DNA of 64,000 nt, from NCBI GenBank assembly GCA_041665305.1, contig JBAYJD010000008.1, positions 9,209 through 73,208 of the forward strand. The letters are read 5' to 3'. Both the position numbers and the translations under genes were made by a program. Below are positions 44,282-63,400 of the stretch, in pieces (position 1 is the first letter of the stretch; each line of letters opens with the position of its first letter). The DNA comes from Elusimicrobiales bacterium. GTDB lineage: Bacteria > Elusimicrobiota > Elusimicrobia > Elusimicrobiales > UBA9959. Below the pieces are notes generated by a model, which was not told the DNA's origin, made no database searches, and saw only the letters and a list, made by a program, of their open reading frames with translations.

Positions 44282-44300
44282 CTGCCATAAAAATTGCTCC
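44282..44300 (+). promoter_or_regulatory. variant -24/-12 element, copy 1 (upstream of the sigma-54-like gene)
   Basis: CTGCCATAAAAATTGCTCC, i.e. TGCCAT-N5-TTGCT with the same spacing as TGGCAC-N5-TTGCW. Lies 39 nt before the ATG at 44339. Confidence 0.6.
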
Positions 44301-44338
44301 ATTTTCGCATAACGGCTATAATATGCGAGGGTGAGGCT

Positions 44339-45397
44339 ATGAGCAAATTCCATAAATTCGGTTTCAACCATTCCGCAAGAACTAAAGCGGCGGCTATGGG
44401 CGCTATGAAGCTGGCGCAGATGTCCGAAATGTCGGAAGGCGAATTTGAAAGCTTTCTGAAGAAGATCGAAGATAACCGTTTTTTTAAATTGCTTAAAGCA
44501 TCCGGCGCCGTCAGCCTGGCGGAATTCCCGAATGCGCGTTATGCCGCAAAAAAATACGCCGGCTACGGGCTTAAACTGTCCTCCGGAGGTCTGCCGGAAC
44601 TAGCCGACGGCAAAGGCGATCTGGTCGGCCTGATACAGGGTATAGGCCAGGAAAAATTTGAAACCTGCTTCCTGAAAGACGCGGCCATGAGTGACGTAGA
44701 GCGGGCAGAGGAATGCGACATAACCGTCAAAGACGCCGCCCGCCTGCGTGATTTCGTCAACCGCGCGTTTATACAGGCTGAATTTGAAAGCGCGCCCGAA
44801 GCTCCTGTGTCGGAAGTGTTCAGTGTCGTGGCCGGCATAGAGCTTGAAAACGGCAAGCCTCTCCTGGCGTTCTTTCACCGGGAAATCTGGAAAGGCTGTT
44901 ATAAAGTGGACGGGGAAAAACTTTCAGAAGCGTTGAAAGGCCTCCCCGCCTCTGAACAAACCGCCGTGGAAAAGCTTGTAAGGCGTATGGAACTGGCGGA
45001 CAAGCGAAAATCCACGCTTTACCGCGCGCTGGAAATAGTTATGGAGCGGCAAACCGAGTACCTGATAACCGGAGAGCCTGTGCGCAGGGCGCCGTTGCCG
45101 CAGAAAGTTCTGGCAGCGGAACTTGAAGTCCATCCCAGCGTTCTTAACCGGCTTATCTCAAATAAATCCATACAGATGCCTTGGGGCACCGAAGCGCCTA
45201 TGTCGGTGCTGCTGCCCAGCTCTAAAGCCATAAATTTAGAGCGGCTATACGCCATAGCCGTTGAAAATCCTGGTATGAACGACACTGAGTTGCGCGCCGA
45301 GCTTAAAATCCGCCACGGCGTAGAATTATCCCGCCAGTCCATAGTGCAATACCGCAAAGATTTATCATTGTCCAGGAATACTTCCAGCACGCTGTAA
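44339..45397 (+). CDS. short divergent sigma-54 (RpoN)-like factor
   Basis: The C-terminal half aligns by eye with RpoN. Pre-HTH region KRKSTLYRALEIVMERQTEYL. HTH LPQKVLAAELEVHPSVLNRLISNKSIQMPWG (compare MHESTISRVT..KY..TP.G). RpoN-box-like SRQSIVQYRKDL (compare ARRTVAKYR). N-terminus MKLAQMSEMSEGEFESFLKKIEDN resembles region I. About 352 aa against the usual ~450-500. Confidence 0.65.
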   Translation: MSKFHKFGFNHSARTKAAAMGAMKLAQMSEMSEGEFESFLKKIEDNRFFKLLKASGAVSLAEFPNARYAAKKYAGYGLKLSSGGLPELADGKGDLVGLIQGIGQEKFETCFLKDAAMSDVERAEECDITVKDAARLRDFVNRAFIQAEFESAPEAPVSEVFSVVAGIELENGKPLLAFFHREIWKGCYKVDGEKLSEALKGLPASEQTAVEKLVRRMELADKRKSTLYRALEIVMERQTEYLITGEPVRRAPLPQKVLAAELEVHPSVLNRLISNKSIQMPWGTEAPMSVLLPSSKAINLERLYAIAVENPGMNDTELRAELKIRHGVELSRQSIVQYRKDLSLSRNTSSTL

Positions 45398-45531: not shown

Positions 45532-45550
45532 CTGCCATGAAAATTGCTCC
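45532..45550 (+). promoter_or_regulatory. variant -24/-12 element, copy 2
   Basis: CTGCCATGAAAATTGCTCC. Lies 46 nt before the lanA1 ATG. Confidence 0.6.
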
Positions 45551-45595: not shown

Positions 45596-45688
45596 ATGAC
45601 TAAAGTACTTGAACTGCAGAAACTGGAAACCGGATCAGAGGGCGAGACCCGCTTGGGCAGTTGGATCAGCAACAGCTGCGGGCAATAG
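45596..45688 (+). CDS. class III lanthipeptide precursor (30 aa), absent from the ORF track
   Basis: MTKVLELQKLETGSEGETRLGSWISNSCGQ. RBS aaggag. Leader VLELQ motif. Core S-x-x-S-x-x-C. Confidence 0.8.
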   Translation: MTKVLELQKLETGSEGETRLGSWISNSCGQ

Positions 45689-45724
45689 TGAGTGTGCCGA
45701 TATTAAACAATAGGAGAAAATAAA

Positions 45725-45826
45725 ATGAACACGATACTTGAGTTGCAGAAACTGGAAGTAAAGTCGGAAAACGAGACTCGCGGGGGAAGCTGGATCAGCA
45801 ACTGCTGCGGCGGGCAGAACGAATGA
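45725..45826 (+). CDS. class III lanthipeptide precursor (33 aa), absent from the ORF track
   Basis: MNTILELQKLEVKSENETRGGSWISNCCGGQNE. RBS aggag. Leader ILELQ motif. Core SWISNCC. Confidence 0.8.
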   Translation: MNTILELQKLEVKSENETRGGSWISNCCGGQNE

Positions 45827-45838
45827 GCGGTAGGATAA

Positions 45839-45872
45839 CTCCGGAGGTGGGGAGATTCGGCCACCTCCGGAG
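45839..45872 (+). terminator. strong hairpin between precursor genes and lanKC (attenuator or mRNA stabiliser)
   Basis: Perfect 12-bp stem ctccggaggtgg / ccacctccggag with a 10-nt loop. No clear U-tract. Confidence 0.5.
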
Positions 45873-45889
45873 CGGATTGTTAAGTTCGG

Positions 45890-48556
45890 GTGGGTAATGA
45901 TATGAATAGCGCAAACAACTTGAATTACTACCTGTTCGCAGACAAACGGTTCTATGAGCCCATGGATTATTGCGTGGTAAATGAGGGCGATTATTTTGAT
46001 TTCGTCCGAAGCCAGGCTGATGCGGAATGGAAGTTTGTCAGAAGCGGTATCTGGATAAACTGTATATACCTTAAACATACGATGCCTCTTCAGGGCTGGA
46101 AAATACATTTGTCGGCGACTCATTCGGATTCTGAAGGCATTTTCAGCGCGGCGGCAGAGTTTCTTATGGCGAACAAGGTGACTTTTAAGTTCCTGTTAGA
46201 CAAAAAAACATTGGCGATAACCAATTCAAAAGGCTGGTCTCGCGGCGCTTCCGGGAAATTTATGACGGTGTATCCGACGGATCCGGAGCACTGCAAGTGG
46301 CTGCTGGAAAAACTGCATTCACTGACGGCGGATTTTTGCGGCCCGTATATCCTCTCTGATATGCGTTATAAAGACAGCAAAGTCCTGTACTACAGATATG
46401 GCGGATTCAGGCCGAATTTACGGCTTGATGTGAATGGGAAACGTATCCCGGTGCTGGTTTCCCCTGATGGAAAAGAGGAGGCCGATGTGCGGCCGCCGTA
46501 TTACCGTCTCCCCGGATGGGTGGATGAGATATTCCCGAAGAAGAATACAAATGAGTCTGGTGGCGGATTGAATAACGGGAGATATGCAGTTGAGAGATCT
46601 CTGCATTTCTCCAATACAGGCGGGATATATATCGCCTATGACAATATCGGGAAAAAAAGAGTTGTGCTGAAAGAGGCGCGTGCGCATGTCAACGCGTTCG
46701 CGGAAAATGTGGACGCCGCCAGAATGCTTAAGAGGGAGTATGATATCCTGAAAAAAGTCGGGAACTGCGGCATCGCGCCGGAGCCGGTTGAATTATTCAG
46801 GGAATGGGAGCACCTTTTCCTGGCGGAAGAATATCTGGAGGGTTATATCACGCTTCACGCTTTCGCCGCGCAGAACAGTATTCTGCTGGAGGCGCGCCCT
46901 ACCGAAGAGAAGGTTAAATCCTACCTGGAAAAATATATCGCAATTTTCAGAAAACTCGCGGGAATTATTGAGGCCCTTCATTCCCGGAATATCATATTCG
47001 GGGATTTTTCGGTCAATAATGTCCTGGTCAATCCCGCCACGCTGGATATAAAAATTATCGACCTGGAAGGGGCGCTTGTGGAGGGCGAGGAGGAAGCTTA
47101 TAAACTTTTTACACGCGGGTTTGCCGCCGTCGAGCAGGTCAAGGGGGCGGCGCCTACGCGGGAAAGCGATTATTACGCATTCGGCGCGATAATGCTGTAT
47201 ATGCTGACGCATATAAACGGGATTCTGGATTTAAAGCCTGATGCCGGAACTGAAGCATTGCAGATGGTGGGCCGGGATTTTGGCATACCTGTAAAGTTGA
47301 GAAGGATTATAAATACCCTCATGCACTCCGATCCCGCGAAGCGGCGGGGCCCGGGTGTTTTGCGCGATCAGAAGCAGGAAACTGCTTTAAGGAAGACATG
47401 CGCGGTCAGATTGTCCGCAGCTGCTCCCCGGTTGTCCAGGAAGTACATTACTGATACCGTGCGGTCGGCATGCAGCTTTATTGAATCGAGCGCGGACTAC
47501 GCCAGGAAAGACAGGCTCTTTCCCGCAGACCCGGAAATTTTTGAAACGAATCCGCTCAGTCTTGCGCATGGGGCCGTAGGGGTTCTTTATACATTATCAA
47601 AACTCGGACGCAAGCCTGCTCCCGAAATGCTGCAATGGGTGCGCCAGCATGAAATTTCCGGCAAAAATTGTCCGCCCGGCTTATATCCGGGAATGTCCGG
47701 CATAGCCTGGGGACTGCTTGAGCTTGGCGATAAGGCTGGCGCCGAGGCTGTGTTCGGTAAAACATTCAATTCCCCGCTTTTAGCTGTTTCTTCATCGCTG
47801 TATACCGGCCTGGCCGGTTGGGGGATGACCAATCTTAAGTTCTGGCTGGCCACCCGCAAGGAAATTTACCTGGACAATGCCAAAAAGGCGGGGGAAACAT
47901 TGCTTGATTCCGCGCGCAACGATTCTCACGGTGCGCACTGGCCTGATCAGGCCGGCAAAGTGCCTATCGGGCTGGCGCACGGAGCGGGAGGAATAGGTCT
48001 TTTCCTGCTGTATCTTTACGCGGCCACCGGCAATCAAAAATACCGGCAAAAAGCCGTGGAGGCATTGGATCACGACATCGCTTATGCCGATGCGTTCGGA
48101 AACGGTAATATGGCCTGGGCGAAGACAGCCGGAGAGAACGGGGCGCTTTACCCTTACTGGGAATACGGCAGCGCCGGTATCGGAATTGCCTGCCTGCGCT
48201 ATTTCAGCGTGTTAAAGGAACCTAAGTACATGAAACTTGTGGAAAAGATATATGAAAGCTGCGCGACAAAATATGCGATTTTCCCAGGAAGAAATATGGG
48301 CATGGCAGGTCTGGGCGAGTTTCTGCTTGACGCTTATGCCGTGACAAAAGACGTAAAATACCTCAATAGCGCGCACAGTGTCGCAAGCGGATTCAAACGT
48401 TTTGCGATACGAAGCCCAAAAGGCGTCGCGTTCCCCGGCGACGGTCTGGCACGGATAAGTTGTGATTACGCCGCCGGGATGAGCGGGATCATACTGTTCC
48501 TCGACCGGCTGGTGTCAGGCCGGCCTGCGGATTTTATGCTTGATGAATTGCTTTAA
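45890..48556 (+). CDS. class III lanthipeptide synthetase (LanKC: lyase-kinase-cyclase)
   Basis: Central kinase-like VVLKEARAH, FGDFSVNNVLVN, IIDLEGA. C-terminal LanC-like GxxG repeats (SLAHGAVG, GMSGIAWG, GLAGWG, GLAHGAGG). The Zn-ligand positions read WEYGSAG and GRNMGMAG rather than WCxG and CHG, as expected for class III. Start is GTG 45890 or ATG 45902. Confidence 0.85.
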   Translation: MGNDMNSANNLNYYLFADKRFYEPMDYCVVNEGDYFDFVRSQADAEWKFVRSGIWINCIYLKHTMPLQGWKIHLSATHSDSEGIFSAAAEFLMANKVTFKFLLDKKTLAITNSKGWSRGASGKFMTVYPTDPEHCKWLLEKLHSLTADFCGPYILSDMRYKDSKVLYYRYGGFRPNLRLDVNGKRIPVLVSPDGKEEADVRPPYYRLPGWVDEIFPKKNTNESGGGLNNGRYAVERSLHFSNTGGIYIAYDNIGKKRVVLKEARAHVNAFAENVDAARMLKREYDILKKVGNCGIAPEPVELFREWEHLFLAEEYLEGYITLHAFAAQNSILLEARPTEEKVKSYLEKYIAIFRKLAGIIEALHSRNIIFGDFSVNNVLVNPATLDIKIIDLEGALVEGEEEAYKLFTRGFAAVEQVKGAAPTRESDYYAFGAIMLYMLTHINGILDLKPDAGTEALQMVGRDFGIPVKLRRIINTLMHSDPAKRRGPGVLRDQKQETALRKTCAVRLSAAAPRLSRKYITDTVRSACSFIESSADYARKDRLFPADPEIFETNPLSLAHGAVGVLYTLSKLGRKPAPEMLQWVRQHEISGKNCPPGLYPGMSGIAWGLLELGDKAGAEAVFGKTFNSPLLAVSSSLYTGLAGWGMTNLKFWLATRKEIYLDNAKKAGETLLDSARNDSHGAHWPDQAGKVPIGLAHGAGGIGLFLLYLYAATGNQKYRQKAVEALDHDIAYADAFGNGNMAWAKTAGENGALYPYWEYGSAGIGIACLRYFSVLKEPKYMKLVEKIYESCATKYAIFPGRNMGMAGLGEFLLDAYAVTKDVKYLNSAHSVASGFKRFAIRSPKGVAFPGDGLARISCDYAAGMSGIILFLDRLVSGRPADFMLDELL

Positions 48557-48566
48557 GGAGAATCCA

Positions 48567-50117
48567 ATGTTTAAGAATATGCGGCTTATTGTTCGGCCTT
48601 ATACAACCTCGTTTACCCTCGCATTGGCGGGCGTGGTCGCTATGGATGCGGTCATGAGCCTGCTCAATCCGCTTTTATTGAAATACATATTTGATGAGGG
48701 AGTGATAAAAAAGGATTTCAGGCTGTTTATTGTGGTTACTGTCGGGTTTATGATCCTTGCGACCTTATTCCGGTTGTTCTCTTTATGGAACAACCTTTAC
48801 GTGCAGGATCTGAAAAACAGAATACTTAAACGGCTTATAGGAAGCATGCTGGAAAGCTACTATAAAATGCCGTATATACAGGTCATGAAGAATAAAACCG
48901 GCTATTATACCTCAAGGATTTATGACGAGCCGCTGAGCGCCTCATCCACGGCGATAGATCTCGCTTTCGCGGTATGCCCGGCCGCTGTTTCGTTTCTTGT
49001 GGCGTTTGGGGTTGTTGTTTTCTTGTCGATCAAAGCCACGTTTGCGCTGGTGCTTACGGTGCCGTTCCTTATAATGCTCGCAAATAAATACCATTCCGAG
49101 ATCAAGCAGCATTCCCGCGACGAAAAAGAGGGGGAGGGCGAGTTGCGCGGCGTTATAACCGGTTCTGCGGAATCATATCGTACCGTCAACCTGTTCGGCC
49201 TGCATTCCGCGGTGCTGTCAAAAATTAACGAGAAGTTCGAAAAGTACACGACAAGTCTTAATGCCCGTGTCAGAAACAGCGCAAAACATAACACTTATGG
49301 CGCTATTTTCATGTCCTACGGCGAAATGCTGGTTATAATCGTCTGCGGATACGCGATTTTGAAAGGGGAGATGAGTTTCGGGGGATTCATGGCTTTTATG
49401 AACGCATTCTGGCTTGCCGTCGGCAATATGAGAACGCTTGTGCAGAAAATACCTGAATTCTCACGGAACTCAATGGCGTTGCATCGGTTGGCGGAGTTCG
49501 GCATGCCAGCTTCAGAAGCGGCTGGTACCGGCGGTGGAACCGGGATCGGCGCAATTACACTTGAAAACGTGGGGTTCAGCTATGGTGATAAGCAAGTATT
49601 TTCAAACCTGAGTTTCAGCGCGGGCAAAGGCGAAAAATTGCTGCTAAGCGGCAAGAACGGCTCCGGAAAATCCACGGTGGCGAATATGCTCTCCGGATTC
49701 CTCGCGCCGGATAATGGGACCGCGCGGATTCTGGGCGTTGAAAAGACCAGCGCCTGCGTCTCCCCGCATCACTTCGCGCCTGGCACATTACGCGACAACC
49801 TGAAATTCGATAGCCATACGGACGAACAGCGCCGATACCTGAATGGCGTGCTGGCGGACTTCAAGCTGACGGAAAGTCTTGATAAGAGCCCTGATGCGCT
49901 GTCCGCCGGGCAGAAGAAAAAGGCCGAGATCGCTATGGGGTTGATGAAAGACGCTGAATTGTTTCTGTTCGACGAACCTCTCGCCAACGTGGACGTGGAG
50001 AGCAAGCCGATAATAATGGAGCATATCTTTAACCGGACCAAAGATAAAATCCTGGTAGTTGTAATGCATGGGGATGATGAATTCCGTGGGCAGTTTACCA
50101 GGATGGTGAGTTTATGA
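48567..50117 (+). CDS. ABC transporter, fused permease/ATPase (peptide exporter)
   Basis: Six N-terminal TM helices. Walker A GKNGSGKST, signature LSAGQKKK, Walker B LFLFDEP. RBS aaggag. Confidence 0.85.
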   Translation: MFKNMRLIVRPYTTSFTLALAGVVAMDAVMSLLNPLLLKYIFDEGVIKKDFRLFIVVTVGFMILATLFRLFSLWNNLYVQDLKNRILKRLIGSMLESYYKMPYIQVMKNKTGYYTSRIYDEPLSASSTAIDLAFAVCPAAVSFLVAFGVVVFLSIKATFALVLTVPFLIMLANKYHSEIKQHSRDEKEGEGELRGVITGSAESYRTVNLFGLHSAVLSKINEKFEKYTTSLNARVRNSAKHNTYGAIFMSYGEMLVIIVCGYAILKGEMSFGGFMAFMNAFWLAVGNMRTLVQKIPEFSRNSMALHRLAEFGMPASEAAGTGGGTGIGAITLENVGFSYGDKQVFSNLSFSAGKGEKLLLSGKNGSGKSTVANMLSGFLAPDNGTARILGVEKTSACVSPHHFAPGTLRDNLKFDSHTDEQRRYLNGVLADFKLTESLDKSPDALSAGQKKKAEIAMGLMKDAELFLFDEPLANVDVESKPIIMEHIFNRTKDKILVVVMHGDDEFRGQFTRMVSL

Positions 50118-50341: not shown

Positions 50342-50509
50342 ATGAACGCAATGCAGATGAACCTTAACAATACGGACGAAAATAACTTCACTTCCGGGTT
50401 CAACCGTGCGCCTGAGTTGGAGGATGTGTTTATGTCTGGTTTCAACCGCGCGCCAGAGCTGGAAGAGAGTTTTACTTCCGGTTTCAATCGCGCTCCCGAA
50501 CTGGCCTAA
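50342..50509 (+). CDS. repeat-containing RiPP precursor (55 aa), absent from the ORF track
   Basis: MNAMQMNLNNTDENNF-TSGFNRAPELEDVF-MSGFNRAPELEESF-TSGFNRAPELA. RBS aaaggag. Three 14-codon units with SGFNRAPEL invariant while 8 of its 9 codons differ synonymously between units. Confidence 0.8.
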   Translation: MNAMQMNLNNTDENNFTSGFNRAPELEDVFMSGFNRAPELEESFTSGFNRAPELA

Positions 50510-50521
50510 TCTGGTTATGAT

Positions 50522-50553
50522 CCGGGCCGGGGACAGTAAAGGTCCCGGCCCGG
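50522..50553 (+). terminator. GC-rich hairpin between precursor and radical SAM gene
   Basis: ccgggccgg(g)gac / gtcccggcccgg, a 12-bp stem with one bulge. No U-tract. Confidence 0.5.
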
Positions 50554-50566
50554 TTCCGGAGCTTAT

Positions 50567-51703
50567 ATGACAAAACCATTTTTCTCTTATTCCACTCCAC
50601 GAATAAACAGCCTTGTATTCAAGCTGGTGGACTATTGCAATCAAGGTTGCACTTATTGCTACCGTGAAAACGACAAAGAGCGTCCAGTGCGCATAATGTC
50701 AGATGAACTGATAGAAACTACTATCGTGAAATATATAGATTTTCTTAAGTCCAAAGGAAACGCCCGCAGCGTAGTATATCTGATCTGGCATGGCGGGGAG
50801 CCATTGCTGGCAGGAATCAGTAAGTTCAGGACGATAATGGAAATACAGGCGCAGCTTGCGGCCAGGTATGAGGTCGGTTTTGTGAATTCCGTGCAAACCA
50901 ATGGGGTCTATATTGATGAGGAATGGGCAAAGTTCTTCAACGAAAACAGGTTCCTGGTCGGGGTGAGCCTGGACGGCCCTAAGCAGATTCATGATATCTA
51001 CAGAAAAAACAAAGGCGGAGTTTCCACCTTCGCGGAGACGATGCGCGGGATCAAATTGCTGCAAGCGCACAAAATAAAAACTAATCTTATCGGTGTTGTA
51101 ACCAATGAGAGCGCTCCGCACGCCGATATGATGTATGAGTTTTTCAGGGATTTTGGCGTGCAGGACATAGACCTCATCCCTTGTTTTGATTATAACGATC
51201 CGCTTACCTTGTCGCCGGAGCTGTACCGCGCTTTTATGGTTACGATTTTTAAGCGGTGGCGTTCGGACGGATTTGCGCCGCTGAGAATAAGGTTCCTTTC
51301 CGATGTTTTGAAAAAGATCTCGGTGCTGCGTTCCGGCGGTTGCGCTACTATAGGCTGCGAGCTTATGGGCGGCTGCGGGCAGAACTGGTCCATAGGCGTG
51401 GAAGGGGAAGTATATCCGTGCGAGTGCCTCACCCCGATAAAGCGCATGGAGCTGGGAAATATTATGGAATCTTCTTTTGAAGGGCTCATGTCCTGCGGCG
51501 CTTTCACTAACGTGAAATCGGAGAACAATGATATCGCGCAAGATTGCCGCGACTGCGACGTGCTGGCGGTATGCCGGGCAGGCTGCCTCAACAGGCGTCT
51601 TAAGGATTATAAACTTGACGGGAAAAGGGACCCTTACTGCCTTGCCCGCCGTGACGTGATCAAACTTGCCCTGGAGGATGCGTATGCAATCCCGGCTAAA
51701 TAA
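50567..51703 (+). CDS. radical SAM/SPASM-domain peptide maturase
   Basis: CNQGCTYC (CxxxCxxC), WHGGEPLL. C-terminal Cys clusters GGCATIGCELMGGCGQ...YPCEC and CRDCDVLAVCRAGC typical of SPASM auxiliary clusters. Confidence 0.85.
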   Translation: MTKPFFSYSTPRINSLVFKLVDYCNQGCTYCYRENDKERPVRIMSDELIETTIVKYIDFLKSKGNARSVVYLIWHGGEPLLAGISKFRTIMEIQAQLAARYEVGFVNSVQTNGVYIDEEWAKFFNENRFLVGVSLDGPKQIHDIYRKNKGGVSTFAETMRGIKLLQAHKIKTNLIGVVTNESAPHADMMYEFFRDFGVQDIDLIPCFDYNDPLTLSPELYRAFMVTIFKRWRSDGFAPLRIRFLSDVLKKISVLRSGGCATIGCELMGGCGQNWSIGVEGEVYPCECLTPIKRMELGNIMESSFEGLMSCGAFTNVKSENNDIAQDCRDCDVLAVCRAGCLNRRLKDYKLDGKRDPYCLARRDVIKLALEDAYAIPAK

Positions 51704-52877
51704 AAACGCCTGGTTATTGTTGTCAGCCGTAGCCATTTCATCCGTAGGGGATTGGCTCAATATCCTTGCCCTGATTACTGTGTTTAGCAAGGCGTATGGG
51801 GCGGCAAGCGTGGCATTCCTGATGGCGATGCGGGCTGTTCCCGGCGTCCTGCTGGGGCCGTGGGTTGCCAATCACATAGATCGCTTTCAGAAAACACGCG
51901 TACTCATTTTTTTAAGCGTCGCTCAGGCAGCCCTGGCGTTAACATTGGGCGTTCTCTCTGACCGTTGGGCGCTTCTCGGCGCGGCGGCGGCGCTTTCCAC
52001 GCTTAATTTGTTCTCCGCCCCTTTGATCAAGGCTCTCCTCCCCACGGTATGCAACTCCGCATCGCTTAGCCGCGTGAATTCGTATTTCGCATCTATACAG
52101 TCAAGTTCCTATGTTCTGATACCGCTTCTTAGCGGGGTGCTGATATCAATCTTTGGCCCGGCGGCATGTTTTAATATAGATGCGGCGACATTTGTCGTCT
52201 TTGGCGTAATGATCGCAGCTGTGCATGTTTCTGATGCGGGGCGTGTCGGCGTTCAGGGGGGGGCGGTAGAGTCCGGGAGTCTCTTCAGGGATCTGCTAAA
52301 TACGCCTGATCTAAAGCGGACATTGTTTGCTTTTGCAGTGGCGGGATTTTCACTGGGGACGATCTACTCGGTGGAGATTTCTTTTTTCGCCAAATACCTG
52401 AATGTAGATCCTCGCGGTTACGGAAGCTTTGTGGCGATCGCCGGCGCGGGTGTGTTGATGGGATCCCTGCTCTGCGGGCGGTTTACGGCTTCGGCAACGC
52501 TTGAGCGGGTGTTTGTAGCGGGGCTTGCCTTATTCGGGACAATGACGGTGCTCTTTTCTTTTAACCGCAGTTTGGTTGTGGCGATCGGGTTGATTATGCT
52601 GTCAGGATTCGGAGAGGGCCTGTTTTCCGTTTCAGGCACCATCCTCGTCCAATTACAATCGCGCGCGGACCGGTTGGCCGGAAATTTTACACTGCTTGGC
52701 GTTTTGTCCAAGAGCTTCAGTCTTTTTGCGATGCTTGTAGCCGCAATGTTTATGGATTACATGCAGCCGGCAGGATTGTTGCTTGTGGCGGGGCTGGTTG
52801 CATTGGGTGTAGCTGCGGTATGGGGCGTAACAAAAGCTCAGGTCAGCAATGTTGCTGCGCCAAAATGCGCCGAATGA
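51684..52877 (+). CDS. MFS transporter (putative peptide exporter)
   Basis: 12 predicted TM helices. N-terminus LLLSAVAISSVGDWLNILAL typical of the MFS_3/EntS-like group. Overlaps the rSAM 3' end. RBS ggagg. Confidence 0.75.
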   Translation: MQSRLNKNAWLLLSAVAISSVGDWLNILALITVFSKAYGAASVAFLMAMRAVPGVLLGPWVANHIDRFQKTRVLIFLSVAQAALALTLGVLSDRWALLGAAAALSTLNLFSAPLIKALLPTVCNSASLSRVNSYFASIQSSSYVLIPLLSGVLISIFGPAACFNIDAATFVVFGVMIAAVHVSDAGRVGVQGGAVESGSLFRDLLNTPDLKRTLFAFAVAGFSLGTIYSVEISFFAKYLNVDPRGYGSFVAIAGAGVLMGSLLCGRFTASATLERVFVAGLALFGTMTVLFSFNRSLVVAIGLIMLSGFGEGLFSVSGTILVQLQSRADRLAGNFTLLGVLSKSFSLFAMLVAAMFMDYMQPAGLLLVAGLVALGVAAVWGVTKAQVSNVAAPKCAE

Positions 52878-52904: not shown

Positions 52905-52983
52905 GCTCATTTTGAGATAGTAGTTTTGTCTAATCTTCATTGAAAGGATTTTCAAAATGAAAATGTTTATATCAGAATGATAG
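52905..52983. promoter_or_regulatory. enhancer-like repeat array upstream of the third precursor operon
   Basis: GCTCATTTTGAGA (52905), CTTCATTGA (52935), TCAAAATGA (52952), TCAGAATGA (52972). Same order and near-identical spacing as the array at 50127-50205. Confidence 0.55.
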
Positions 52984-53069
52984 GTTTTGTTTGTTCTTAA
53001 ATCCCTGAAAATATCGTCAGGCAGTCATTTCTCCAATGGGGGCGTATGAAATAGGTTGGTTGTCCGCCC

Positions 53070-53088
53070 CTGCCATAAAAATTGCTCC
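53070..53088 (+). promoter_or_regulatory. variant -24/-12 element, copy 4
   Basis: CTGCCATAAAAATTGCTCC. Lies 40 nt before the ATG at 53128. Confidence 0.6.
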
Positions 53089-53127
53089 GTAGGAGGCGTA
53101 AGCAGACATAATATACGGAGGATACAA

Positions 53128-53304
53128 ATGAAACGGATAACGATCAAAATAGCAATAGCGGGGATATCGGCTTTGTTTATAATGGCAGTTTTACTGAAGC
53201 CGCAGCACTTGACTGGCGGCGAGGCCAGCAAAAAGCAGACCGTAGTTCACTATACCAGCGTTGGAGTGTTTCCCAATTCGCCGCTGTTCTATGCGGAGAA
53301 CTAA
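53128..53304 (+). CDS. small peptide (58 aa) with hydrophobic N-terminus, candidate precursor or secreted peptide
   Basis: MKRITIKIAIAGISALFIMAVLLKPQHLTGGEASKKQTVVHYTSVGVFPNSPLFYAEN. RBS acggagg. The longer track ORF from 53056 would begin inside the promoter element. Confidence 0.6.
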   Translation: MKRITIKIAIAGISALFIMAVLLKPQHLTGGEASKKQTVVHYTSVGVFPNSPLFYAEN

Positions 53305-53442
53305 GCAAAGACCCACGGTGGATATAGGTCCAAAGGCCCTTACAAACTTATGAGTCACAGACTACACTATTGTATGATTCTTGACAGCTCGGGGGATTGG
53401 CCTCGGAATATCTGCGACCGGACCTTGATCATGTGTATCCAG

Positions 53443-53487
53443 GGAAAGCAGAATCGAATTTGCTTTTCCTCTTTTAATTGAAAAGCA
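53443..53487 (+). promoter_or_regulatory. two mutually exclusive hairpins (terminator/antiterminator-like)
   Basis: Hairpin 1 is ggaaagca / tgcttttcc (53443-53469), followed by tctttt. Hairpin 2 is tgctttt / aaaagca (53461-53487). Both use the same tgctttt segment. Confidence 0.4.
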
Positions 53488-53529
53488 GTTTCTGAAATGG
53501 CAGAATACAGCAGATAAGGAGAATGCGAT

Positions 53530-53730
53530 ATGACGAACAAAGATAAAGTGATTGTATCGTTCCTGGTGTCCATCGGGATATTTTCTTCCGCCCAAGCGGT
53601 TCGCTATGTTAAGACTCTTGAAATTAGTGAGAAGAACTCCATGATATCCGTGGCCAAACTATCTAATTCCGGCATAGTTCTTTGTGAAGATTCTACCAGT
53701 CGTTCCGGTTTAGATAATCATAAAGGATAA
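53530..53730 (+). CDS. small protein (66 aa) with signal-peptide-like N-terminus, translationally coupled to the radical SAM gene
   Basis: MTNKDKVIVSFLVSIGIFSSAQA... RBS aaggag. Its TAA overlaps the ATG of the next gene (TAATG). Confidence 0.55.
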   Translation: MTNKDKVIVSFLVSIGIFSSAQAVRYVKTLEISEKNSMISVAKLSNSGIVLCEDSTSRSGLDNHKG

Positions 53731-54629
53731 TGGATGGGCACGCTTTGGGGCAGACCGTCGATATTCGTAAGCTAGGAATAGTTGTCGGTACCGCATGCAA
53801 TTTTAATTGCAGCCATTGCTTGATCAAGAAGGAAGACAGGCGTGAACGACTGTCTCTGAAAGAGGTTCGGCTATTGTGCGATACGGTGGCCAGATATCGT
53901 CCGAAGTCGATTTTGTTCACCGGAGGGGAACCGACCTTTTGGATCAAGGAAATAAACGAAATTATTTCCTCCCACCCTTGCCCTGAAAACCTTAAAATCA
54001 CTTTGACCACTAATGGCCATTTCGCAGGGTCGGTCTCTTTGGCGAAGAAGGTGCTCTCCTCGTTTACCAGACTTGATTATGTGCAATTGTCGTATGATGT
54101 TTTCCATAAAATCTTCCTGTCGTTTTCAAAAGCTAAAAATCTTCATTCAGCGTGTACGGAGTTGCGGGTCGGTTTCAGCGCGATTCTAACGATGTCGTCT
54201 CCGTTGGACCTGCTTCTCGTTAAACAGTTGCGAAGTTTCGGGCGGTTCAAGATAGGGGTGCAAAAGGTCGCTAGTATTGGAGAGGCGAAGAGAAACGGCA
54301 TTCGGTTCATCTTCCCATGCTTTGACGAGAAAGTACTCTCTAAATATTGTCCCAACAGGAACAGTCTCGGGTATATTTGCGGACGCGGATTCTCGATCTG
54401 TTGTGCGGAACTGGCCTTTAATAATTCTATGCCCGGGGTGTTTCACTCAACGCTGGGTGAACATTTGGCCAGTCCTTTATACGGATTGATGCGGAAACAC
54501 AATTTTGCGGAACTGATGAAAATATTGCGGGTACCTAAAAAGTCCCTGCTGCCGGATCATTCCTCGGAGTGTGTGCTGTGCGACCATATTTTTAAAAATG
54601 CCAGGAGGAAAGTGCGGTTGACGCCGTAA
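53730..54629 (+). CDS. radical SAM protein with C-terminal Cys-rich (twitch/SPASM-like) region
   Basis: CNFNCSHC (CxxxCxxC), FTGGEPTF. C-terminal CPNRNSLGYICGRGFSICC and CVLC. Confidence 0.8.
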   Translation: MDGHALGQTVDIRKLGIVVGTACNFNCSHCLIKKEDRRERLSLKEVRLLCDTVARYRPKSILFTGGEPTFWIKEINEIISSHPCPENLKITLTTNGHFAGSVSLAKKVLSSFTRLDYVQLSYDVFHKIFLSFSKAKNLHSACTELRVGFSAILTMSSPLDLLLVKQLRSFGRFKIGVQKVASIGEAKRNGIRFIFPCFDEKVLSKYCPNRNSLGYICGRGFSICCAELAFNNSMPGVFHSTLGEHLASPLYGLMRKHNFAELMKILRVPKKSLLPDHSSECVLCDHIFKNARRKVRLTP

Positions 54630-54636
54630 ATCGTGT

Positions 54637-55332
54637 ATGAAATCAAACCCCCGTCTTGTTCAGAAGGAAAAAGGAAAAATAACCTATCAAATGCCGGATT
54701 TTACCCGGCTTAATACTTCGGCGATAGATAAGCTTGCCTGGCCGAAGGAAATCCCGGTCTTGTGGCTGAAATACTACGAAAACCTCGACGGCTGCTACGA
54801 GGCGTTGGATAAAAGGATATCCCGCAAATATATCGTGCGGGTAATATACTCCGCCGATAAGAAAGATATTCATTTGAAGGGGAGAAAGGAATCTGCCTGC
54901 GCGATAAAAGCCAGGGAATCGCTTACAACGGCGGAATTATTGGCACTATATCTTGAAACACATGCTAAATCCTTTATCGCGCCGTGGGCCGGACAACTTG
55001 ATAGTAAATATATAGACGAGGTTTCCTCGTTCATTAAAGAAGATCTGCCGATCTCAAAGTCGTTGAGCTTCTTTAAGGATAAATCCCCAGTGGGATTGGT
55101 GCTCCTGACGGAGTTAGGCAGCGGAGCTGGGCTTATTTCATGGATATGGTTCGCGCCGTCTTTAAGCATTGCTGAAAGACGGAAAGCGCACAATCTCTTT
55201 GCCGCCTGGCTGAGGAACGGGAAATATCCGCAAATTAAAAGTGTCGTTCATTCTTTCAACCTGCGCTCTAACAGATTCTTTATAAAAATGGGATTCCATA
55301 CTCAATGCATTGCTATCACCAGACGAAGCTGA
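54637..55332 (+). CDS. GNAT-family acetyltransferase-like protein (tentative)
   Basis: C-terminal pattern GLVLLTEL...ISWIWFAP...RRKAHNLFAAWL...NLRSNRFFIKMGF resembles GNAT motifs A/B. The N-terminal half is unassigned. Confidence 0.5.
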   Translation: MKSNPRLVQKEKGKITYQMPDFTRLNTSAIDKLAWPKEIPVLWLKYYENLDGCYEALDKRISRKYIVRVIYSADKKDIHLKGRKESACAIKARESLTTAELLALYLETHAKSFIAPWAGQLDSKYIDEVSSFIKEDLPISKSLSFFKDKSPVGLVLLTELGSGAGLISWIWFAPSLSIAERRKAHNLFAAWLRNGKYPQIKSVVHSFNLRSNRFFIKMGFHTQCIAITRRS

Positions 55333-59038: not shown

Positions 59039-60400
59039 TTATTTTCTTCCATCCGGTTCATCGCCCTTGTTCGGTCCAAATTTCTTTAACCTGGCATAAA
59101 GCAGGTTGGTGGAGATCTTAAGATTGGCCATTACCTTGCTTTTGTTGCCGTTGTTCTCCTGCATATTGCGGCGGATTATCTCGTAGGTGAACAGTTCGGA
59201 CGCGGCGTCCAGGCCGTTTTTTACGGCGTATTTATACTGCGCGTTCGTAAGGAACCCGCCTGGCGGCAGGGGGTTAAGTTCCTGCGAAAGGTGCTTACGG
59301 ATAGTTTCAAGCGTGACGCGGTTTCCCGTGCCTGAAACAAGCAGGTCCACCAGCTTCTTCAATTCCCGGATATTGCCCGGCCATTCGTATTGGAGCATGA
59401 AAGTTCTGGCGTCCGGCGCAAATGATAATTGCCGTGCCCCGCTCGTGAATTGCCGTATGAGGGGGAAAATATCGCAGGAGCGTTCGCACAACGGCTTAAG
59501 GTTGACGGTCAGGCCGTGTATGCGCTGAAAGAAGTCCAGCCGCAGTTTCCCTTGCGTTATAAGCGCCTTAAGGTCTTCTAGCGTGGCGCTGATTATCCTG
59601 AAATCGGAACGCTCCGGTTTGTCGGAGCCCAGCGGGTAAAACGATTTCTCCTCAATGGCTTTAAGCAGCTTGGTCTGCATATTAAGGCTCATAGAACCTA
59701 TTTCATCCAAAAACAATGTGCCGTTGTTGGCCTGCAAGAGTCGGCCCTTTCTGTTTTCATTTGCCCCGGTGAATGCGCCTTTCCTGTAGCCGAACAATTC
59801 GGCTTCCATCAATTCCTCGGTATAGGCCGAGCAATTCATGGCGACGAATTCGCCGGAACGTCCGGAATATTTGTGAATTATCCGGGCCAGGCAGGTTTTT
59901 CCTGTGCCGGTTGGCCCAAGGATAAGGATAGGGGAGCCGGAGGCCGCGTATTTAAGCGCTTCGGTGACATTGGCGCGCGTTGCCGGGTCTTCGGTTATAA
60001 ATTCCTCGGAGAAGACTTTATTGAGGTTCCCGCTTTTGCCGCGCTGCAGGTATTTGGCGATAACCGCGCTGATATTGGCTTTCTCGTTGCCTTTGATATA
60101 GAAATCGTCGCAGCCGAGTTCATAGGCCTTATTTATGATATCGTCGGAATCCGAGCTTGTCATGACCACGGAGTAAAACCCTTTTGATCTGGCGTCCGCG
60201 ATAAGTTTTAAACCCGAATAATCATCATCAAGCCCCAGCATCAGGTCCAGGAAGCATAGGTCATAAGAACCGCCGGCCAGTTTTTTCCTGGCGGTCTTTG
60301 TATCTTTTGCGAAGTCCACGGCATGGCCTGTCAACTGGGCCGCCATGACCGCCTGCGCCGGATTTTCGTCTTCAACCACCAGAATCTTCAGTTTGTCCAT
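59039..60400 (-). CDS. sigma-54-dependent response regulator (NtrC-type enhancer-binding protein)
   Basis: Receiver ILVVEDE...CFLDLML. AAA+ Walker A GPTGTGKT, intact GAFTGA loop, Walker B LFLDEIG, EWPGNIREL. C-terminal Fis-type HTH KSKVMANLKISTNLLYARLKKFG. Confidence 0.9.
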   Translation of the reverse strand: MDKLKILVVEDENPAQAVMAAQLTGHAVDFAKDTKTARKKLAGGSYDLCFLDLMLGLDDDYSGLKLIADARSKGFYSVVMTSSDSDDIINKAYELGCDDFYIKGNEKANISAVIAKYLQRGKSGNLNKVFSEEFITEDPATRANVTEALKYAASGSPILILGPTGTGKTCLARIIHKYSGRSGEFVAMNCSAYTEELMEAELFGYRKGAFTGANENRKGRLLQANNGTLFLDEIGSMSLNMQTKLLKAIEEKSFYPLGSDKPERSDFRIISATLEDLKALITQGKLRLDFFQRIHGLTVNLKPLCERSCDIFPLIRQFTSGARQLSFAPDARTFMLQYEWPGNIRELKKLVDLLVSGTGNRVTLETIRKHLSQELNPLPPGGFLTNAQYKYAVKNGLDAASELFTYEIIRRNMQENNGNKSKVMANLKISTNLLYARLKKFGPNKGDEPDGRK

Positions 60401-60615
60401 TAAACCCCTCCAAAATGAGAGAAACCACTTTCAAAATGCAATATTTAACCCCAAAAATATTATACAGAACTTTGCCGTAAGGATACATCGTTATATTGTT
60501 ATTTATGTGCGCGGTCTGCGGGATCTTCCGGGAGTTAATGCGGGAGTTGAAAATGAGCTCGGGAGCAATTTCAAAACTGGTGGCTAAAGACAGGCTTCAA
60601 GCCCAAGCCCTGTTA

Positions 60616-60729: not shown

Positions 60730-61941
60730 ATGAAACGAGTATTCGTACTGGCGTCGGGGCTCATCACCGCCGCCGCCGTCTGCGCGCAGGCGTCCCAGAA
60801 GATAATAAGCTTTGAGACCGCCTACCGTGGCGCTATAGACAAGAATATAGAAGAAGTAGGTGGGAAGGTAACGCGCAAATTCACCCTGATAGACTCCGTG
60901 GTTGCGATATTCCCCGACAATGCGAAGACCGACGCGATTATGTCCATTAAGGGCGTGACCGCCGTTTACGAGGATAAATACAGGAAATGGCTGAACGAAG
61001 CGCCAGTTTCATTGAGTGCGGTCCAGTTCCCTTCGGTAAAGGAAATTATCGCCAAGGCCCGCTCCGGCGAAGGCTGGAACAGGCCCGCACCGTTCGCGAC
61101 CAGACCGTCCGAAACCGAGATACCTTGGGGCGTTAAGCGCGTTAACGCTTCCGCTGCCTGGGGAACATTGACCGGCAAAGGCGTCAAAGTCTGTATCATA
61201 GACACCGGCGTGGACGGCAATCATCCCGACTTGGCGCCTAATTATAAGGGCGGTTACAATGCCGTGGTCTCTACCGAGCCTCCGACCGACGAACACGGCC
61301 ACGGCACACACGTCGCCGGCACCATAGCCGCCGCGTTGAACGATAAGGGCGTGGTCGGAGTGGCCCCCAACGCCGAAATATACGGGGTCAAGGTCCTTGG
61401 CAAGGACGGCTACGGTCAGGATTCCTGGGTGGCCGCAGGAGTGGAATGGGCCATCATGAATCACATGAACGTGACCAACATGAGCCTCGGTGACAAGGAA
61501 GAGTCCGTCCCGCTGAAGCAAATGATGGAAAAAGCCGACCAGGCCGGGATAACCCAGGTTGTGGCGGCCGGAAACTTGATGACATTCTGGGGCACCTGCC
61601 CGGTCATGTATCCCGCCAAGTACGACGTGGCCATCGCGATCTCCGCCTCAGATTCATCCGACAAGATAGCGTCTTTCTCCTGCCGTGGACCCGAAGTGGA
61701 CCTGATAGCGCCCGGCGCCAGGATTAACTCCACTAAACCCGGCGGCGGCTACCAAACGATGGACGGGACCTCGATGGCCTGTCCTCATGTGGCGGGCCTG
61801 GCTGCGCTGGCGGTGAACGCCGGTGCCAAAACCCCGGCCGAAGTGCGCGCGGCCTTGGTCAAGGCGGCCTCTCCTCTCGCCGGCCTGAGGCCCGAGGAAG
61901 AGGGCGCGGGCCTGGTGAATGCGGCCAAACTGCTGAAGTAA
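60730..61941 (+). CDS. secreted subtilisin-like serine protease (peptidase S8)
   Basis: Signal peptide. Propeptide-like N-terminus. Catalytic triad contexts IDTGVD, HGTHVAG, GTSMACPHVAG. Confidence 0.9.
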   Translation: MKRVFVLASGLITAAAVCAQASQKIISFETAYRGAIDKNIEEVGGKVTRKFTLIDSVVAIFPDNAKTDAIMSIKGVTAVYEDKYRKWLNEAPVSLSAVQFPSVKEIIAKARSGEGWNRPAPFATRPSETEIPWGVKRVNASAAWGTLTGKGVKVCIIDTGVDGNHPDLAPNYKGGYNAVVSTEPPTDEHGHGTHVAGTIAAALNDKGVVGVAPNAEIYGVKVLGKDGYGQDSWVAAGVEWAIMNHMNVTNMSLGDKEESVPLKQMMEKADQAGITQVVAAGNLMTFWGTCPVMYPAKYDVAIAISASDSSDKIASFSCRGPEVDLIAPGARINSTKPGGGYQTMDGTSMACPHVAGLAALAVNAGAKTPAEVRAALVKAASPLAGLRPEEEGAGLVNAAKLLK

Positions 61942-62437: not shown

Positions 62438-62500
62438 GAAAATAGCCATTTTCATCGCGACAGGACGTTGTCGGGATTGTCTGCTATACTTTTTTTATGA
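62438..62500 (+). promoter_or_regulatory. promoter/operator module, copy 1
   Basis: cattttcatcgcgacaggacgttgtcgggattgtcTGcTATACTttttttATG. Extended -10, internal cgaca/tgtcg palindrome, and the ATG 6 nt after the -10. Confidence 0.55.
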
Positions 62501-63021
62501 AATCTCAAAAAGTGTCGAACATTGTTGTTCCGGAAGCGCTAGAAAAACAGATAATTCTGATCCGCGGCCACCGGGTGATGCTGGACCGTGACCTGGCCAG
62601 GACATACGGAGTGACAACTGCGCGTCTCAACGAGCAGATTAAGAGGAATCGCAAACGGTTTCCTGATGATTTTGTGTTTCAACTCACTAAACAGGAGATG
62701 ACCGATTGGATATCGCAAACTGCGACATCCAATTCCGCGATAAAGATGGGTTTGCGTAAGCCTCCGTTCGCCTTCACGGAACACGGCGCGGTTGCCGCAG
62801 CCTTCGTCCTCAACAGTCCCATCGCCGTGGCCGCCAGCGTTCAAATCGTGCGGGCTTTCGTACGGCTTCGAGAGATGGTTGGTACCCATGCGGCCCTGGC
62901 GCGCAAACTTCAGGAACTGGAAAAGAGGTATGACACCCAATTCAAGGTTGTATTCGATGCGATCAGGGAACTGATGAGCCCGCCGGAAACGCCGAGGCGG
63001 GCCATTGGCTTTCGGCCATAA
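62497..63021 (+). CDS. ORF6N-domain DNA-binding protein
   Basis: IRGHRVMLDRDLARTYGVTTARLNEQIKRNRKRFPDDFVFQLTKQE is the canonical ORF6N/KilA-N-related motif. Confidence 0.85.
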   Translation: MKSQKVSNIVVPEALEKQIILIRGHRVMLDRDLARTYGVTTARLNEQIKRNRKRFPDDFVFQLTKQEMTDWISQTATSNSAIKMGLRKPPFAFTEHGAVAAAFVLNSPIAVAASVQIVRAFVRLREMVGTHAALARKLQELEKRYDTQFKVVFDAIRELMSPPETPRRAIGFRP

Positions 63022-63345: not shown

Positions 63346-63400
63346 TCATTTTCATCGCGACAGGACGCTGTCGGGGTCGTCTGCTATACTTTTAATATGA
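63338..63400 (+). promoter_or_regulatory. promoter/operator module, copy 2
   Basis: Same ~63-bp module, exactly 900 bp downstream of copy 1, with ~7 substitutions. Followed by the ATG at 63397 of a 44-codon ORF of uncertain reality. Confidence 0.5.

Follow-up and report, generated by a model that had tools for sequence, protein, structure and literature searches.

The 64,000-nucleotide stretch of the Elusimicrobiales contig JBAYJD010000008.1 analysed here (the window) carries, around positions 53128 to 55332, two small open reading frames (ORFs) of 58 and 66 amino acids (ORF58 and ORF66), the gene of a radical S-adenosylmethionine (SAM) enzyme and that of a GNAT-fold protein. The best explanation of this region is that it contains two transcription units which are part of one regulatory circuit. 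Unit 1 consists of a sigma-54-type promoter and ORF58; unit 2 is a conserved Elusimicrobiota cassette running from ORF66 to a histidine kinase, preceded in relatives by a riboswitch of the 2'-deoxyguanosine-II (2'-dG-II) class. The evidence tips slightly towards unit 2 making a modified, probably D-amino-acid-containing peptide signal, which is exported and sensed outside the cell with an output via sigma-54, riboswitch gating having been lost in this genome. The parts of this system are of known kinds; their combination is new.

Homologs of the radical SAM protein were gathered by three routes: a protein search, a metagenome scan with an aptamer pattern and a genome scan. Word-index searches yielded 21 matches for the radical SAM protein, 7 for the 231 amino acid GNAT-fold protein (ORF231) and 4 for ORF58; the majority of homologs therefore come from the aptamer DNA-pattern scan and the genome scan. 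Iteration of a hidden Markov model of the enzyme drifted to generic radical SAM proteins (156 matches), and a strict phmmer set was used instead. This gave 43 distinct homologs, 41 of them with at least 300 nt of upstream sequence, which are the denominator for the counts of small ORFs. Related loci compared with the window are designated by L numbers.

An ORF of the ORF66 family lies directly upstream of 36 of the 41 radical SAM homologs, while a member of the ORF58 family is found near a single one, the window itself. This answers the question of which small ORF co-varies with the enzyme, which an earlier reading from sequence only had left undecided. The five exceptions are four distant cassettes (L003-L005 and L145) and L132. 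In L003-L005 there is a small ORF at the position of ORF66, and a more sensitive profile adds distant small ORFs of L003, L140, L143 and L144 to the family.

The ORF66 peptide has no match in Pfam or NCBIfam. Its N-terminal part consists of a signal-like hydrophobic stretch followed by xQA-xQYVxxLSxxxKxxL, and the alignment of 45 distinct members shows a near-invariant N-terminal segment of about 40 residues (M-x-N-x-DK-IIAAFLVS-G-FS-xQA-xQYV-xLS-xxxK-xxL). Column entropy is low over residues 1 to about 42 and high over the last 22 or so. The variable C-terminal cores are short and either polar or acidic, with no amphipathic character; they often begin with a hydrophobic triplet, and in about 21 of the 45 members a cysteine comes next. 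An exhaustive search of 1.84 billion proteins returned 57 cluster representatives of the family, all of 51-92 amino acids and matching mainly in the N-terminal part. With a conserved leader, a variable core and a modifying enzyme next to it, ORF66 has the make-up of a precursor of the RiPP type (ribosomally synthesised and post-translationally modified peptides), as far as its sequence can tell. Features of a signal peptide are a start rich in K and D, a hydrophobic stretch of about 12-13 residues, A at position -1 in 43/45 members and, in roughly two thirds of the members, a small residue at -3; the hydrophobic stretch would suit a cleavable signal better than a membrane span.

The radical SAM enzyme is recognised by Pfam through its radical SAM core alone (Radical_SAM, E = 5.8e-11). 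Across 18 family members there is no change in the three cysteines of its CX3CX2C motif (C23, C27 and C30), nor in C207, C224, C225, C281 and C284, which include the C-terminal cysteine clusters described previously. The best NCBIfam model is the YydG epimerase TIGR04078, aligned over the full length. In the PDB, EpeE/YydG is the sole full-length match, both with a profile (E = 1.2e-22, positions 9-288 to 30-326) and with the single sequence (E = 4.7e-11); the remaining sequence matches cover the N-terminal core only, at about 1e-6. An AlphaFold model of the enzyme (mean pLDDT, the predicted local confidence, 87.4) gave in Foldseek nine top matches which are all EpeE structures (8ai1-8ai6; template modelling (TM) score 0.67-0.73, E about 1e-14), viperin-like enzymes coming next at about 3e-8. 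The invariant pair C224-C225 aligns with the P-C-C motif of EpeE (C222/C223, using a numbering offset that we presume for the crystal construct). Cys223 is the hydrogen-atom donor in EpeE (PMC5682303, PMC13012085), and by this alignment the donor cysteine appears to be kept in the window enzyme. EpeE epimerises Val and Ile, and the hydrophobic triplet of the ORF66 cores would be a plausible target. A nucleotide-acting enzyme of the MoaA or viperin kind was considered and rejected, its matches being to the generic core only.

Downstream of the enzyme the conserved unit goes on beyond position 55332, where the sequence-only reading had let it end, with the genes of a binding-protein-like lipoprotein and a membrane histidine kinase (Table 1). 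The gene order small ORF, radical SAM enzyme, in part of the loci a protein of about 235 amino acids, binding-protein-like protein of about 470 amino acids and kinase recurs in L001-L005 and in over 30 other loci. Of 35 radical SAM homologs, 33 have a binding-protein-like gene no more than 3.5 kb away, and the kinase gene is conserved 3' of this gene in related loci. The window lipoprotein scores 21.1 bits against SBP_bac_5, under the cut-off of 32.4; this is the only Pfam family matched by its orthologs (9/34, best E = 3.3e-7). With the single sequence the PDB search gave no match, and the family profile was needed to reach the NikA, CntA and OppA structures (E = 5e-7). On this similarity and its lipobox, the lipoprotein is a probable extracellular receptor. 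The kinase has hydrophobic segments at residues 15-39 and 136-173 around an outer loop of about 95 residues, and its C-terminal extensions are receiver-like, with a weak Response_reg match (E = 0.015).

The hosts of the cassette are Elusimicrobia metagenome-assembled genomes (MAGs), with distant copies in Oligoflexia, Deltaproteobacteria and Halobacteriovorax. Two to three paralogous ORF66/radical SAM cassettes, with a riboswitch for each, occur within single Elusimicrobiaceae MAGs (L126 and L136 in one MAG, L127 and L132 in another), and L136 has two cassettes on one contig; the multiplicity suggests parallel signalling channels. At the contig end of one Elusimicrobiales cassette locus (L129, 8292-8397) there is a fragment of a group II intron (RF02003, 71 bits).

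The earlier reading had joined all these genes into one promoter-driven operon with two candidate substrates. Its individual features were all recovered: the fourth copy of a repeated promoter, the 58 amino acid peptide with its C-terminal tail and a GGAGGA ribosome-binding site, the 66 amino acid ORF with IFSSAQA in its signal-like N-terminus and preceded by AAGGAG, and the TAATG overlap of the ORF66 stop with the start of the 299 amino acid enzyme. Likewise supported is a radical SAM enzyme of compact size that has a small peptide as partner and a GNAT-like protein as tailoring candidate. ORF58 and ORF66, on the other hand, are not one operon: between them lie an intrinsic terminator and, flanking it, two promoter-like elements, and the neighbourhoods of homologs speak against it too. 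The riboswitch, the binding protein, the kinase and the kinship of the enzyme to EpeE/YydG had been overlooked.

What had been called a structured spacer between the two small ORFs is as a whole not unusually structured (RNAfold z = -0.03 for the window leader, whose predicted minimum-energy fold lacks the aptamer, against -4.95 for L001); inside it lie the terminator and a weak match to the 2'-dG-II aptamer (RF03165). This match covers the full length of the model at 32.1 bits, below the Rfam gathering score of 60, whereas L001 and L002 have 2'-dG-II aptamers of 80 bits at the equivalent position. Twelve aptamers of relatives that were found via the protein and not via the RNA score 72.7-86.1 bits; among them are those of L209 and L212, where the radical SAM protein shares 88% and 81% identity, respectively, with the window enzyme. 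In the window, J1/2 has changed from UAA to CAG with one inserted base, J2/3 has two changes (G to A and A to G), and P1 and P2 are largely retained; P3 has two central mismatches (ACCGGA/UCAUGU, compared with ACCUGA/UCAGGU in L209). The ligand contacts of the class are the pair U22-A52, A23-G46, C50/C51 and C78 (PMC6847200). By our own mapping onto this numbering, the junction nucleotides that contact the ligand are not kept, the window having C at 22 plus the inserted base, A at 46 and G at 52; the changed pair 22-52 could still form as C-G.

We read the window aptamer as decaying with its terminator preserved, a small doubt being left by the possible C22-G52 compensation. A functional variant of altered specificity was set aside, with the same small doubt, since relatives with 81-88% identical enzymes keep the canonical aptamer and P3 is weakened here. 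The idea of a novel structured RNA was rejected, the spacer being read as a known riboswitch in decay followed by a terminator.

The terminator is a 12-pair stem (53441-53470) followed by the CTTTTAATT T-tract. As in the expression platform of an ON switch, the 5' arm of this stem shares nucleotides with the 3' strand of helix P1 in the aptamer; the same hairpin and T-run follow 28/28 aptamers of group A and 69/73 other aptamers (97/101 other loci). The putative sigma-70-like promoter directly 5' of the aptamer lies in a region whose block GGCCCTTACA...TAAACT is kept in L001, L128, L209 and L212; over all riboswitch loci this element gives a weak positional signal. The promoter-like element found by a promoter scan between terminator and ORF66 is conserved in the window, L001, L002, L128, L209 and L212, though the neighbouring sequence has diverged, and its AAATGGCAGAAT motif is present in 19 of 28 ORF66-type leaders. 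In relatives the riboswitch would gate transcription into unit 2 as an ON switch; in this genome, where the aptamer has decayed, the promoter-like element 3' of the terminator probably supplies expression. In L128 (about 5130-5430) both aptamer and terminator are lost, and the GGCCCTTACA...TAAACT block and a near-perfect extended -10 (TGATAGAAT) are kept before the ORF66 homolog; this is a second, independent loss of the riboswitch. No aptamer was detected at E < 1 in the distant cassettes L003-L005, L140, L143 and L144, nor in three Elusimicrobia cassettes (L128, L130, L141); the cassettes from outside the Elusimicrobia all lack it. The riboswitch is therefore common in the cassette but not obligatory.

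Published knowledge of the 2'-dG-II class comprises 12 examples, all metagenomic and without lineage (PMC5473149), and our literature search found no paper linking Elusimicrobia to a deoxyguanosine riboswitch. The metagenome pattern scan found at least 120 2'-dG-II loci (L006-L125). Among the matches listed, which contain 97 non-identical loci, two contexts predominate, in Elusimicrobia MAGs: small secreted peptides accompanied by genes of binding protein, kinase and sigma-54 signalling, and secreted 'DFDG' proteins. The first gene after the aptamer encodes a secreted DFDG protein of about 200-300 amino acids in 26 of these 97 loci and a member of the ORF66 family in 25. Seven have, as the largest single cluster of other Sec-type small peptides, a peptide followed by a family-5 binding protein and a kinase of the same type with no enzyme; radical SAM/SPASM maturases come first in 5, remaining small clusters and singletons in 18, and in 16 there is no ORF of at least 45 amino acids starting at +85 to +200. 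The DFDG proteins have an N-terminal signal and the DFDG motif, and the same family is sigma-54-driven in L001 (4427-5146). In L102, L108 and L121 a radical SAM/SPASM-like gene is first after the aptamer; in L108, the one of the three that was examined further, peptide, binding protein and kinase follow.

The enzyme-free sister cassettes (L038, L100, L013, L083 and others) consist of the riboswitch, a Sec-type peptide of about 60 amino acids, a family-5 binding protein of about 535 amino acids and a hybrid kinase, together with a sigma-54 regulator or paralog; they have no modifying enzyme. The sister-cassette binding protein passes the SBP_bac_5 cut-off (35.4 bits). These cassettes give the strongest indirect support for a secreted peptide that is sensed by binding protein and kinase.

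The promoter of unit 1 is one of four copies in the window; those at 44283, 50282 and 53071 have the 16-mer core without change, and the copy at 45533 deviates from it at one position. The chance expectation for the core with up to three mismatches is about 1.2 matches. The four copies precede a sigma-54 paralog, a class III lanthipeptide operon, a radical SAM/SPASM operon with a repeat peptide, and ORF58. The -12 TTGC and the canonical spacing of a sigma-54 promoter are present, and -24 reads GC in place of the near-invariant GG in all four copies. In related loci there are 39 distinct TGGCATAAAAATTGCTC promoter copies, all with GG at -24 (TGGCAT or TGGCAC), and the GC form is restricted to the window and L206 (at 534); it is a concerted, lineage-wide change in a core promoter element. 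The cognate partners of such a promoter are present, namely an activator response regulator, a Sigma54_DBD paralog and a repeated site about 120 nt upstream. This site reads TTTCAAAATGA-N-ATCAGAATGA at 52950-52980 and belongs to a repeat family (D2) with copies at 45412, 50172, 52950 and 60429 in the window; we infer that the response regulator binds it.

The ORF58 peptide, whose N-terminus resembles a signal or a membrane anchor, has no Pfam or NCBIfam match. Its three homologs are 68-72% identical with the reading frame kept, and all three known contexts carry a sigma-54-type promoter. The ORF58 homolog of L206 is preceded by the same upstream site and promoter and is followed by an insertion sequence, that of L208 follows unrelated genes, and the family was not found in the other cassettes examined. 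On these comparisons ORF58 is a real, lineage-specific small gene, and cargo of the promoter rather than partner of the enzyme: outside the window no enzyme homolog of the set has it nearby, and in L206 and L208 it is present with no cassette. Unit 1 would be driven by the sigma-54-type promoter with its upstream activator site, most transcripts probably stopping at the terminator. In L206 (770-2210), a close relative, a DDE transposase after the ORF58 unit is inserted exactly where the window has the start of the upstream promoter block of the cassette, and two further transposase genes lie downstream.

The response regulator, which is divergent from the kinase gene, has an upstream-site-like repeat at its own 5' end (60429-60459), and its homologs adjoin cassettes in L004, L005, L018, L065 and L135. 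The short sigma-54 paralog is 69% identical to a 348 amino acid paralog beside a riboswitch-linked kinase in L100. This protein is probably a sigma factor dedicated to the island, and might account for the unusual -24 element. Its length is about 345-367 amino acids, and the listed TTG start overlaps the promoter, so that the true start is probably further downstream.

The GNAT-like gene named in the sequence-only reading corresponds to ORF231, for which a GNAT fold is supported. The protein itself has no match in Pfam or NCBIfam. Its AlphaFold model (pLDDT 77.8, predicted TM score 0.74) gave in Foldseek more than 100 GNAT-type PDB matches, including tandem-GNAT proteins (best E = 2.9e-9, TM about 0.5), and the list also has aminoacyl-tRNA-dependent Fem and MprF domains. 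Among the orthologs, 5/25 match Acetyltransf_1 and 4/25 Acetyltransf_3; all ortholog matches are sub-threshold and concern Acetyltransf_1/3/9 and no other family. The gene is present after 19 of 40 radical SAM homologs, as expected of an optional tailoring step, for which it is a candidate.

Table 1. Genes and control elements of the two units and of their regulatory partners (coordinates of the window).
Feature	Position	Strand	Remarks
Short sigma-54 paralog	44294..45397	+	behind first promoter copy; Sigma54_DBD E = 7.8e-11, above Pfam cut-off
Upstream activator-type site	52950..52980	+	two TCAAAATGA-like direct repeats, ~120 nt 5' of promoter
Sigma-54-type promoter	53069..53090	+	CTGCCATAAAAATTGCTCCGT; -24 TGCCAT, -12 TTGCT; four copies in window
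ORF58	53128..53304	+	small peptide, N-terminal hydrophobic segment, conserved SPLFYAE tail
Putative sigma-70-like promoter	53340..53368	+	TTACAA-17-TACACT; directly 5' of aptamer
Degenerate 2'-dG-II purine-riboswitch aptamer	53376..53447	+	RF03165, 32.1 bits, E = 2.7e-4, full model length
Intrinsic terminator	53441..53480	+	12-pair stem, then T-tract
Putative promoter-like element	53478..53506	+	TTGAAA-17-(TGg)CAGAAT; between terminator and ORF66
ORF66	53530..53730	+	precursor-type peptide; conserved N-terminal ~40 residues, hypervariable C-terminal ~22 residues
Radical SAM enzyme, 299 aa	53730..54629	+	distant, full-length EpeE/YydG-like peptide epimerase homolog
ORF231, 231 aa	54637..55332	+	GNAT-fold protein, optional tailoring candidate
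Lipoprotein, 468 aa	55305..56711	+	family-5 (peptide/nickel) solute-binding-like; lipobox LLAAC
Membrane histidine kinase, 719 aa	56705..58864	+	HATPase_c, HisKA; start overlaps end of binding-protein gene
Sigma-54-dependent response regulator	59039..60400	-	receiver + AAA+; Pfam Response_reg, Sigma54_activat E = 6.7e-57

The window has further genes and repeats around the two units. Behind the second promoter copy (about 45596-50117, +) are two paralogous small precursors (an 88-nt repeat, 74% identical), an 888 amino acid class III-type lanthipeptide synthetase with RamC_N, kinase and LanC domains, and an ABC transporter. The operon at 50342-52877 (+) encodes a 55 amino acid peptide with three SGFNRAPELE-type repeats, a radical SAM/SPASM maturase and an MFS transporter; the maturase best matches anaerobic sulfatase, dynobactin and cyclophane-forming maturases. 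An operon of this type also stands right after the kinase in L001 (10854-12882), so that it accompanies the signalling cassette. Adjacent to the response regulator is an S8 subtilase (60730-61941, +), which has a sigma-70-like promoter to itself and is a candidate for the processing of ORF66 or other peptides of the island. Two direct repeats of 65 nt, 88% identical (62439-62503 and 63339-63403), each have a GC-rich hairpin (CGACAGGACGTTGTCG) and, immediately ahead of a start codon, a -10-like TATACT; the first of them precedes an ORF6N-domain gene.

Gene content, conservation, homologies and RNA matches are observations, and the anatomy and homologies of the system are well supported; epimerisation, export, receptor binding, regulatory wiring and the polarity of the switch we infer from kinship and context. 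ORF66 would be a ribosomal precursor peptide whose variable C-terminal core is modified in the cytoplasm by the radical SAM enzyme. The most likely chemistry would be L-to-D epimerisation of hydrophobic residues, with C225 as hydrogen donor and a C-terminal auxiliary cluster, and ORF231 may add an optional tailoring step. The peptide would leave the cell, probably by the Sec pathway via its signal-like N-terminus, and the family-5 lipoprotein would bind the product and signal to the co-translated histidine kinase. The kinase would control the divergent sigma-54 response regulator, which together with the short sigma-54 paralog would fire the four repeated promoters, i.e. those of the sigma paralog, the lanthipeptide operon, the SPASM operon and ORF58. 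The earlier suggestion that one of the peptides may be a pheromone fits the conserved downstream pair of binding protein and kinase.

A number of points weigh against this reading. The enzyme scores 50.6 bits in the NCBIfam YydG model, far under the cut-off of 300, and is a distant relative and no equivalog; D210 of EpeE, for which the structure of a D210A mutant has been deposited, aligns to an Asn in the window enzyme. The N-terminus of ORF66 is far more conserved than a Sec signal requires (A at -1 in 43/45, Y at +3 in 43/45), and it may be an enzyme-recognition leader instead of an export signal, or both. The core cysteine after the triplet in about 21/45 members makes thioether chemistry possible in some of them. 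There is no dedicated exporter or leader protease in the cassette, the S8 subtilase nearby being a possible candidate, and an iron-sulfur enzyme of the cytoplasm would need to act before export. ORF231 is missing from about half of the cassettes, and it and its family are without the usual GNAT acyl-CoA signature Q/R-x-x-G-x-G/A after strand 4; the segment at this place reads WFAPSLSIAERRKAH, with no Gly, and the family consensus is IxWxW....L...ER..AH. In the promoters, GC at -24 breaks the sigma-54 rule. Finally, with the aptamer degenerate, gating by 2'-dG is probably not applicable in the window.

The main rival explanation is not a dedicated signal but an antimicrobial toxin of the epipeptide type with ORF66 as its precursor, the binding protein and kinase sensing toxin or envelope damage and inducing production and immunity as nisin does. 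EpeE/YydG, the only close relative of the enzyme, does make a membrane-active toxin (PMC7026026, PMC13012085), the surrounding regulon drives other RiPP operons (lanthipeptide and radical SAM/SPASM), and hypervariable cores would fit bacteriocin diversification as well. We nevertheless regard a toxin as rather improbable, though the most serious of the alternatives: the cassette lacks the immunity transporter and protease of epeXEPAB, the partners that stay constant (33/35) are a binding protein of the receptor type and a kinase, sister cassettes without the enzyme retain peptide, binding protein and kinase, and the short, polar or acidic cores lack amphipathic character. A smaller share of credence goes to an ORF66 that is never released and whose tail, modified or not, modulates binding protein and kinase from the periplasm while anchored in the membrane, like MgrB. 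An anchor would account for the N-terminal hydrophobic stretch with its strongly conserved juxtamembrane segment, for the cassette having neither exporter nor protease, and for the conserved gene order with the kinase; but 12-13 hydrophobic residues are short for a membrane span, the small residue at -1 is nearly invariant, and a hypervariable tail with a cytoplasmic modifying enzyme suits a diffusible, specificity-determining signal better.

The single sigma-54-driven operon, in which ORF58 or both peptides would be substrate of the radical SAM enzyme or pheromone, is in our opinion very unlikely. ORF58 is adjacent on the same strand, no terminator lies between it and the aptamer region, and it is a genuine small ORF, conserved together with its C-terminal tail; against this stand its near absence beside radical SAM homologs, its occurrence without the cassette in L206 and L208, and the intrinsic terminator and two promoter-like elements between ORF58 and ORF66. 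The least credible alternative is that the enzyme acts on a nucleoside or nucleotide, ORF66 being an unrelated small membrane protein. It could appeal to the 2'-deoxyguanosine riboswitch of the relatives and to matches of the N-terminal core with MoaA, viperin and QueE models (E = 1e-7 to 1e-12). These matches are limited to the generic core (residues 11 to about 126), whereas only the peptide epimerase EpeE resembles the enzyme in sequence and fold over the full length; ORF66 is tightly associated with the enzyme and shows the leader/core pattern, and the same riboswitch also precedes enzyme-free cassettes.

Extending the favoured reading of a secreted, modified peptide signal beyond the window, we tentatively propose a family of quorum-sensing-like circuits in Elusimicrobiota, a broader idea that we put forward as possible and not as probable. 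A 2'-dG riboswitch, possibly reporting DNA breakdown or lysis, would license a secreted peptide, which in the ORF66 type would carry D-amino acids introduced by the EpeE-like enzyme; binding protein and kinase would read it, and a private sigma-54 paralog with its activator would pass it on to RiPP and secreted-protein operons. If this is true, the orphan 2'-dG-II class gains its biology, and the cassette contains the first peptide signal made by an epimerase and the first EpeE-type system outside the Bacillota. The structure and ligand of this riboswitch are known and its gene context barely; it is now placed in named Elusimicrobia MAGs, where it controls secreted peptides and proteins and peptide-sensing two-component/sigma-54 cassettes. 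This context and lineage are new so far as the literature examined shows. The homologs of EpeE/YydG are extended past the Bacillota and tied to signalling genes instead of genes for toxin export and immunity, and the window itself is an example of aptamer decay with terminator and downstream genes intact. The model is testable, and suggests a way for uncultivated bacteria to bring together a nucleoside cue, a modified peptide signal and a dedicated sigma factor in the control of several RiPP operons.

Among known systems, epeXEPAB (yydFGHIJ) of Bacillus subtilis shares with unit 2 the small precursor gene followed by a radical SAM enzyme of about 300 amino acids. EpeE/YydG and the window enzyme have in common the CX3CX2C motif, the C-terminal auxiliary-cluster domain and the CC motif with the hydrogen-donor cysteine, in a homology of sequence and fold over the full length, but their identity is only about 19%. 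Neither the window cassette nor L001-L005 contains genes for the EpeP protease or the EpeAB transporter; there are instead the GNAT-fold protein, the solute-binding lipoprotein and the histidine kinase, and the ORF66 precursor differs in its signal-like conserved N-terminus and hypervariable core. Epipeptides have been described as restricted to Bacillota (PMC13012085), whereas the cassette hosts are Elusimicrobiota and, for distant copies, Oligoflexia, Deltaproteobacteria and Halobacteriovorax. With the 2'-dG-II class (RF03165; env1 structure, PMC6847200) the leaders of relatives agree at 73-86 bits, in the three-way junction and in the conserved junction nucleotides, from which the window copy departs with its 32 bits, altered J1/2 and J2/3 and weakened P3.

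For the signalling part, Vibrio LuxP/LuxQ/LuxO likewise combines a periplasmic solute-binding protein and a membrane kinase with an output via a sigma-54-dependent response regulator. The proteins are not orthologous, the binding protein of the cassette being of the family-5 peptide/nickel type and not of the LuxP type; moreover, the presumed signal of the cassette is ribosomal, enzyme-modified and encoded in the cassette, and there is a private short sigma-54 paralog. In the Gram-positive systems Phr/Opp, AgrD/AgrC and nisin/NisK, as proposed for the cassette, a gene encodes a small peptide whose N-terminal segment is of the export type and whose active part, at the C-terminus, is variable; a peptide-binding protein or kinase senses the peptide, and the circuit induces RiPP or bacteriocin operons. 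The cassette differs from them in phylum, in radical SAM chemistry, sigma-54 output and riboswitch gate, and in having an extracellular binding protein with a kinase where the Gram-positive signals are imported or bind the kinase directly.

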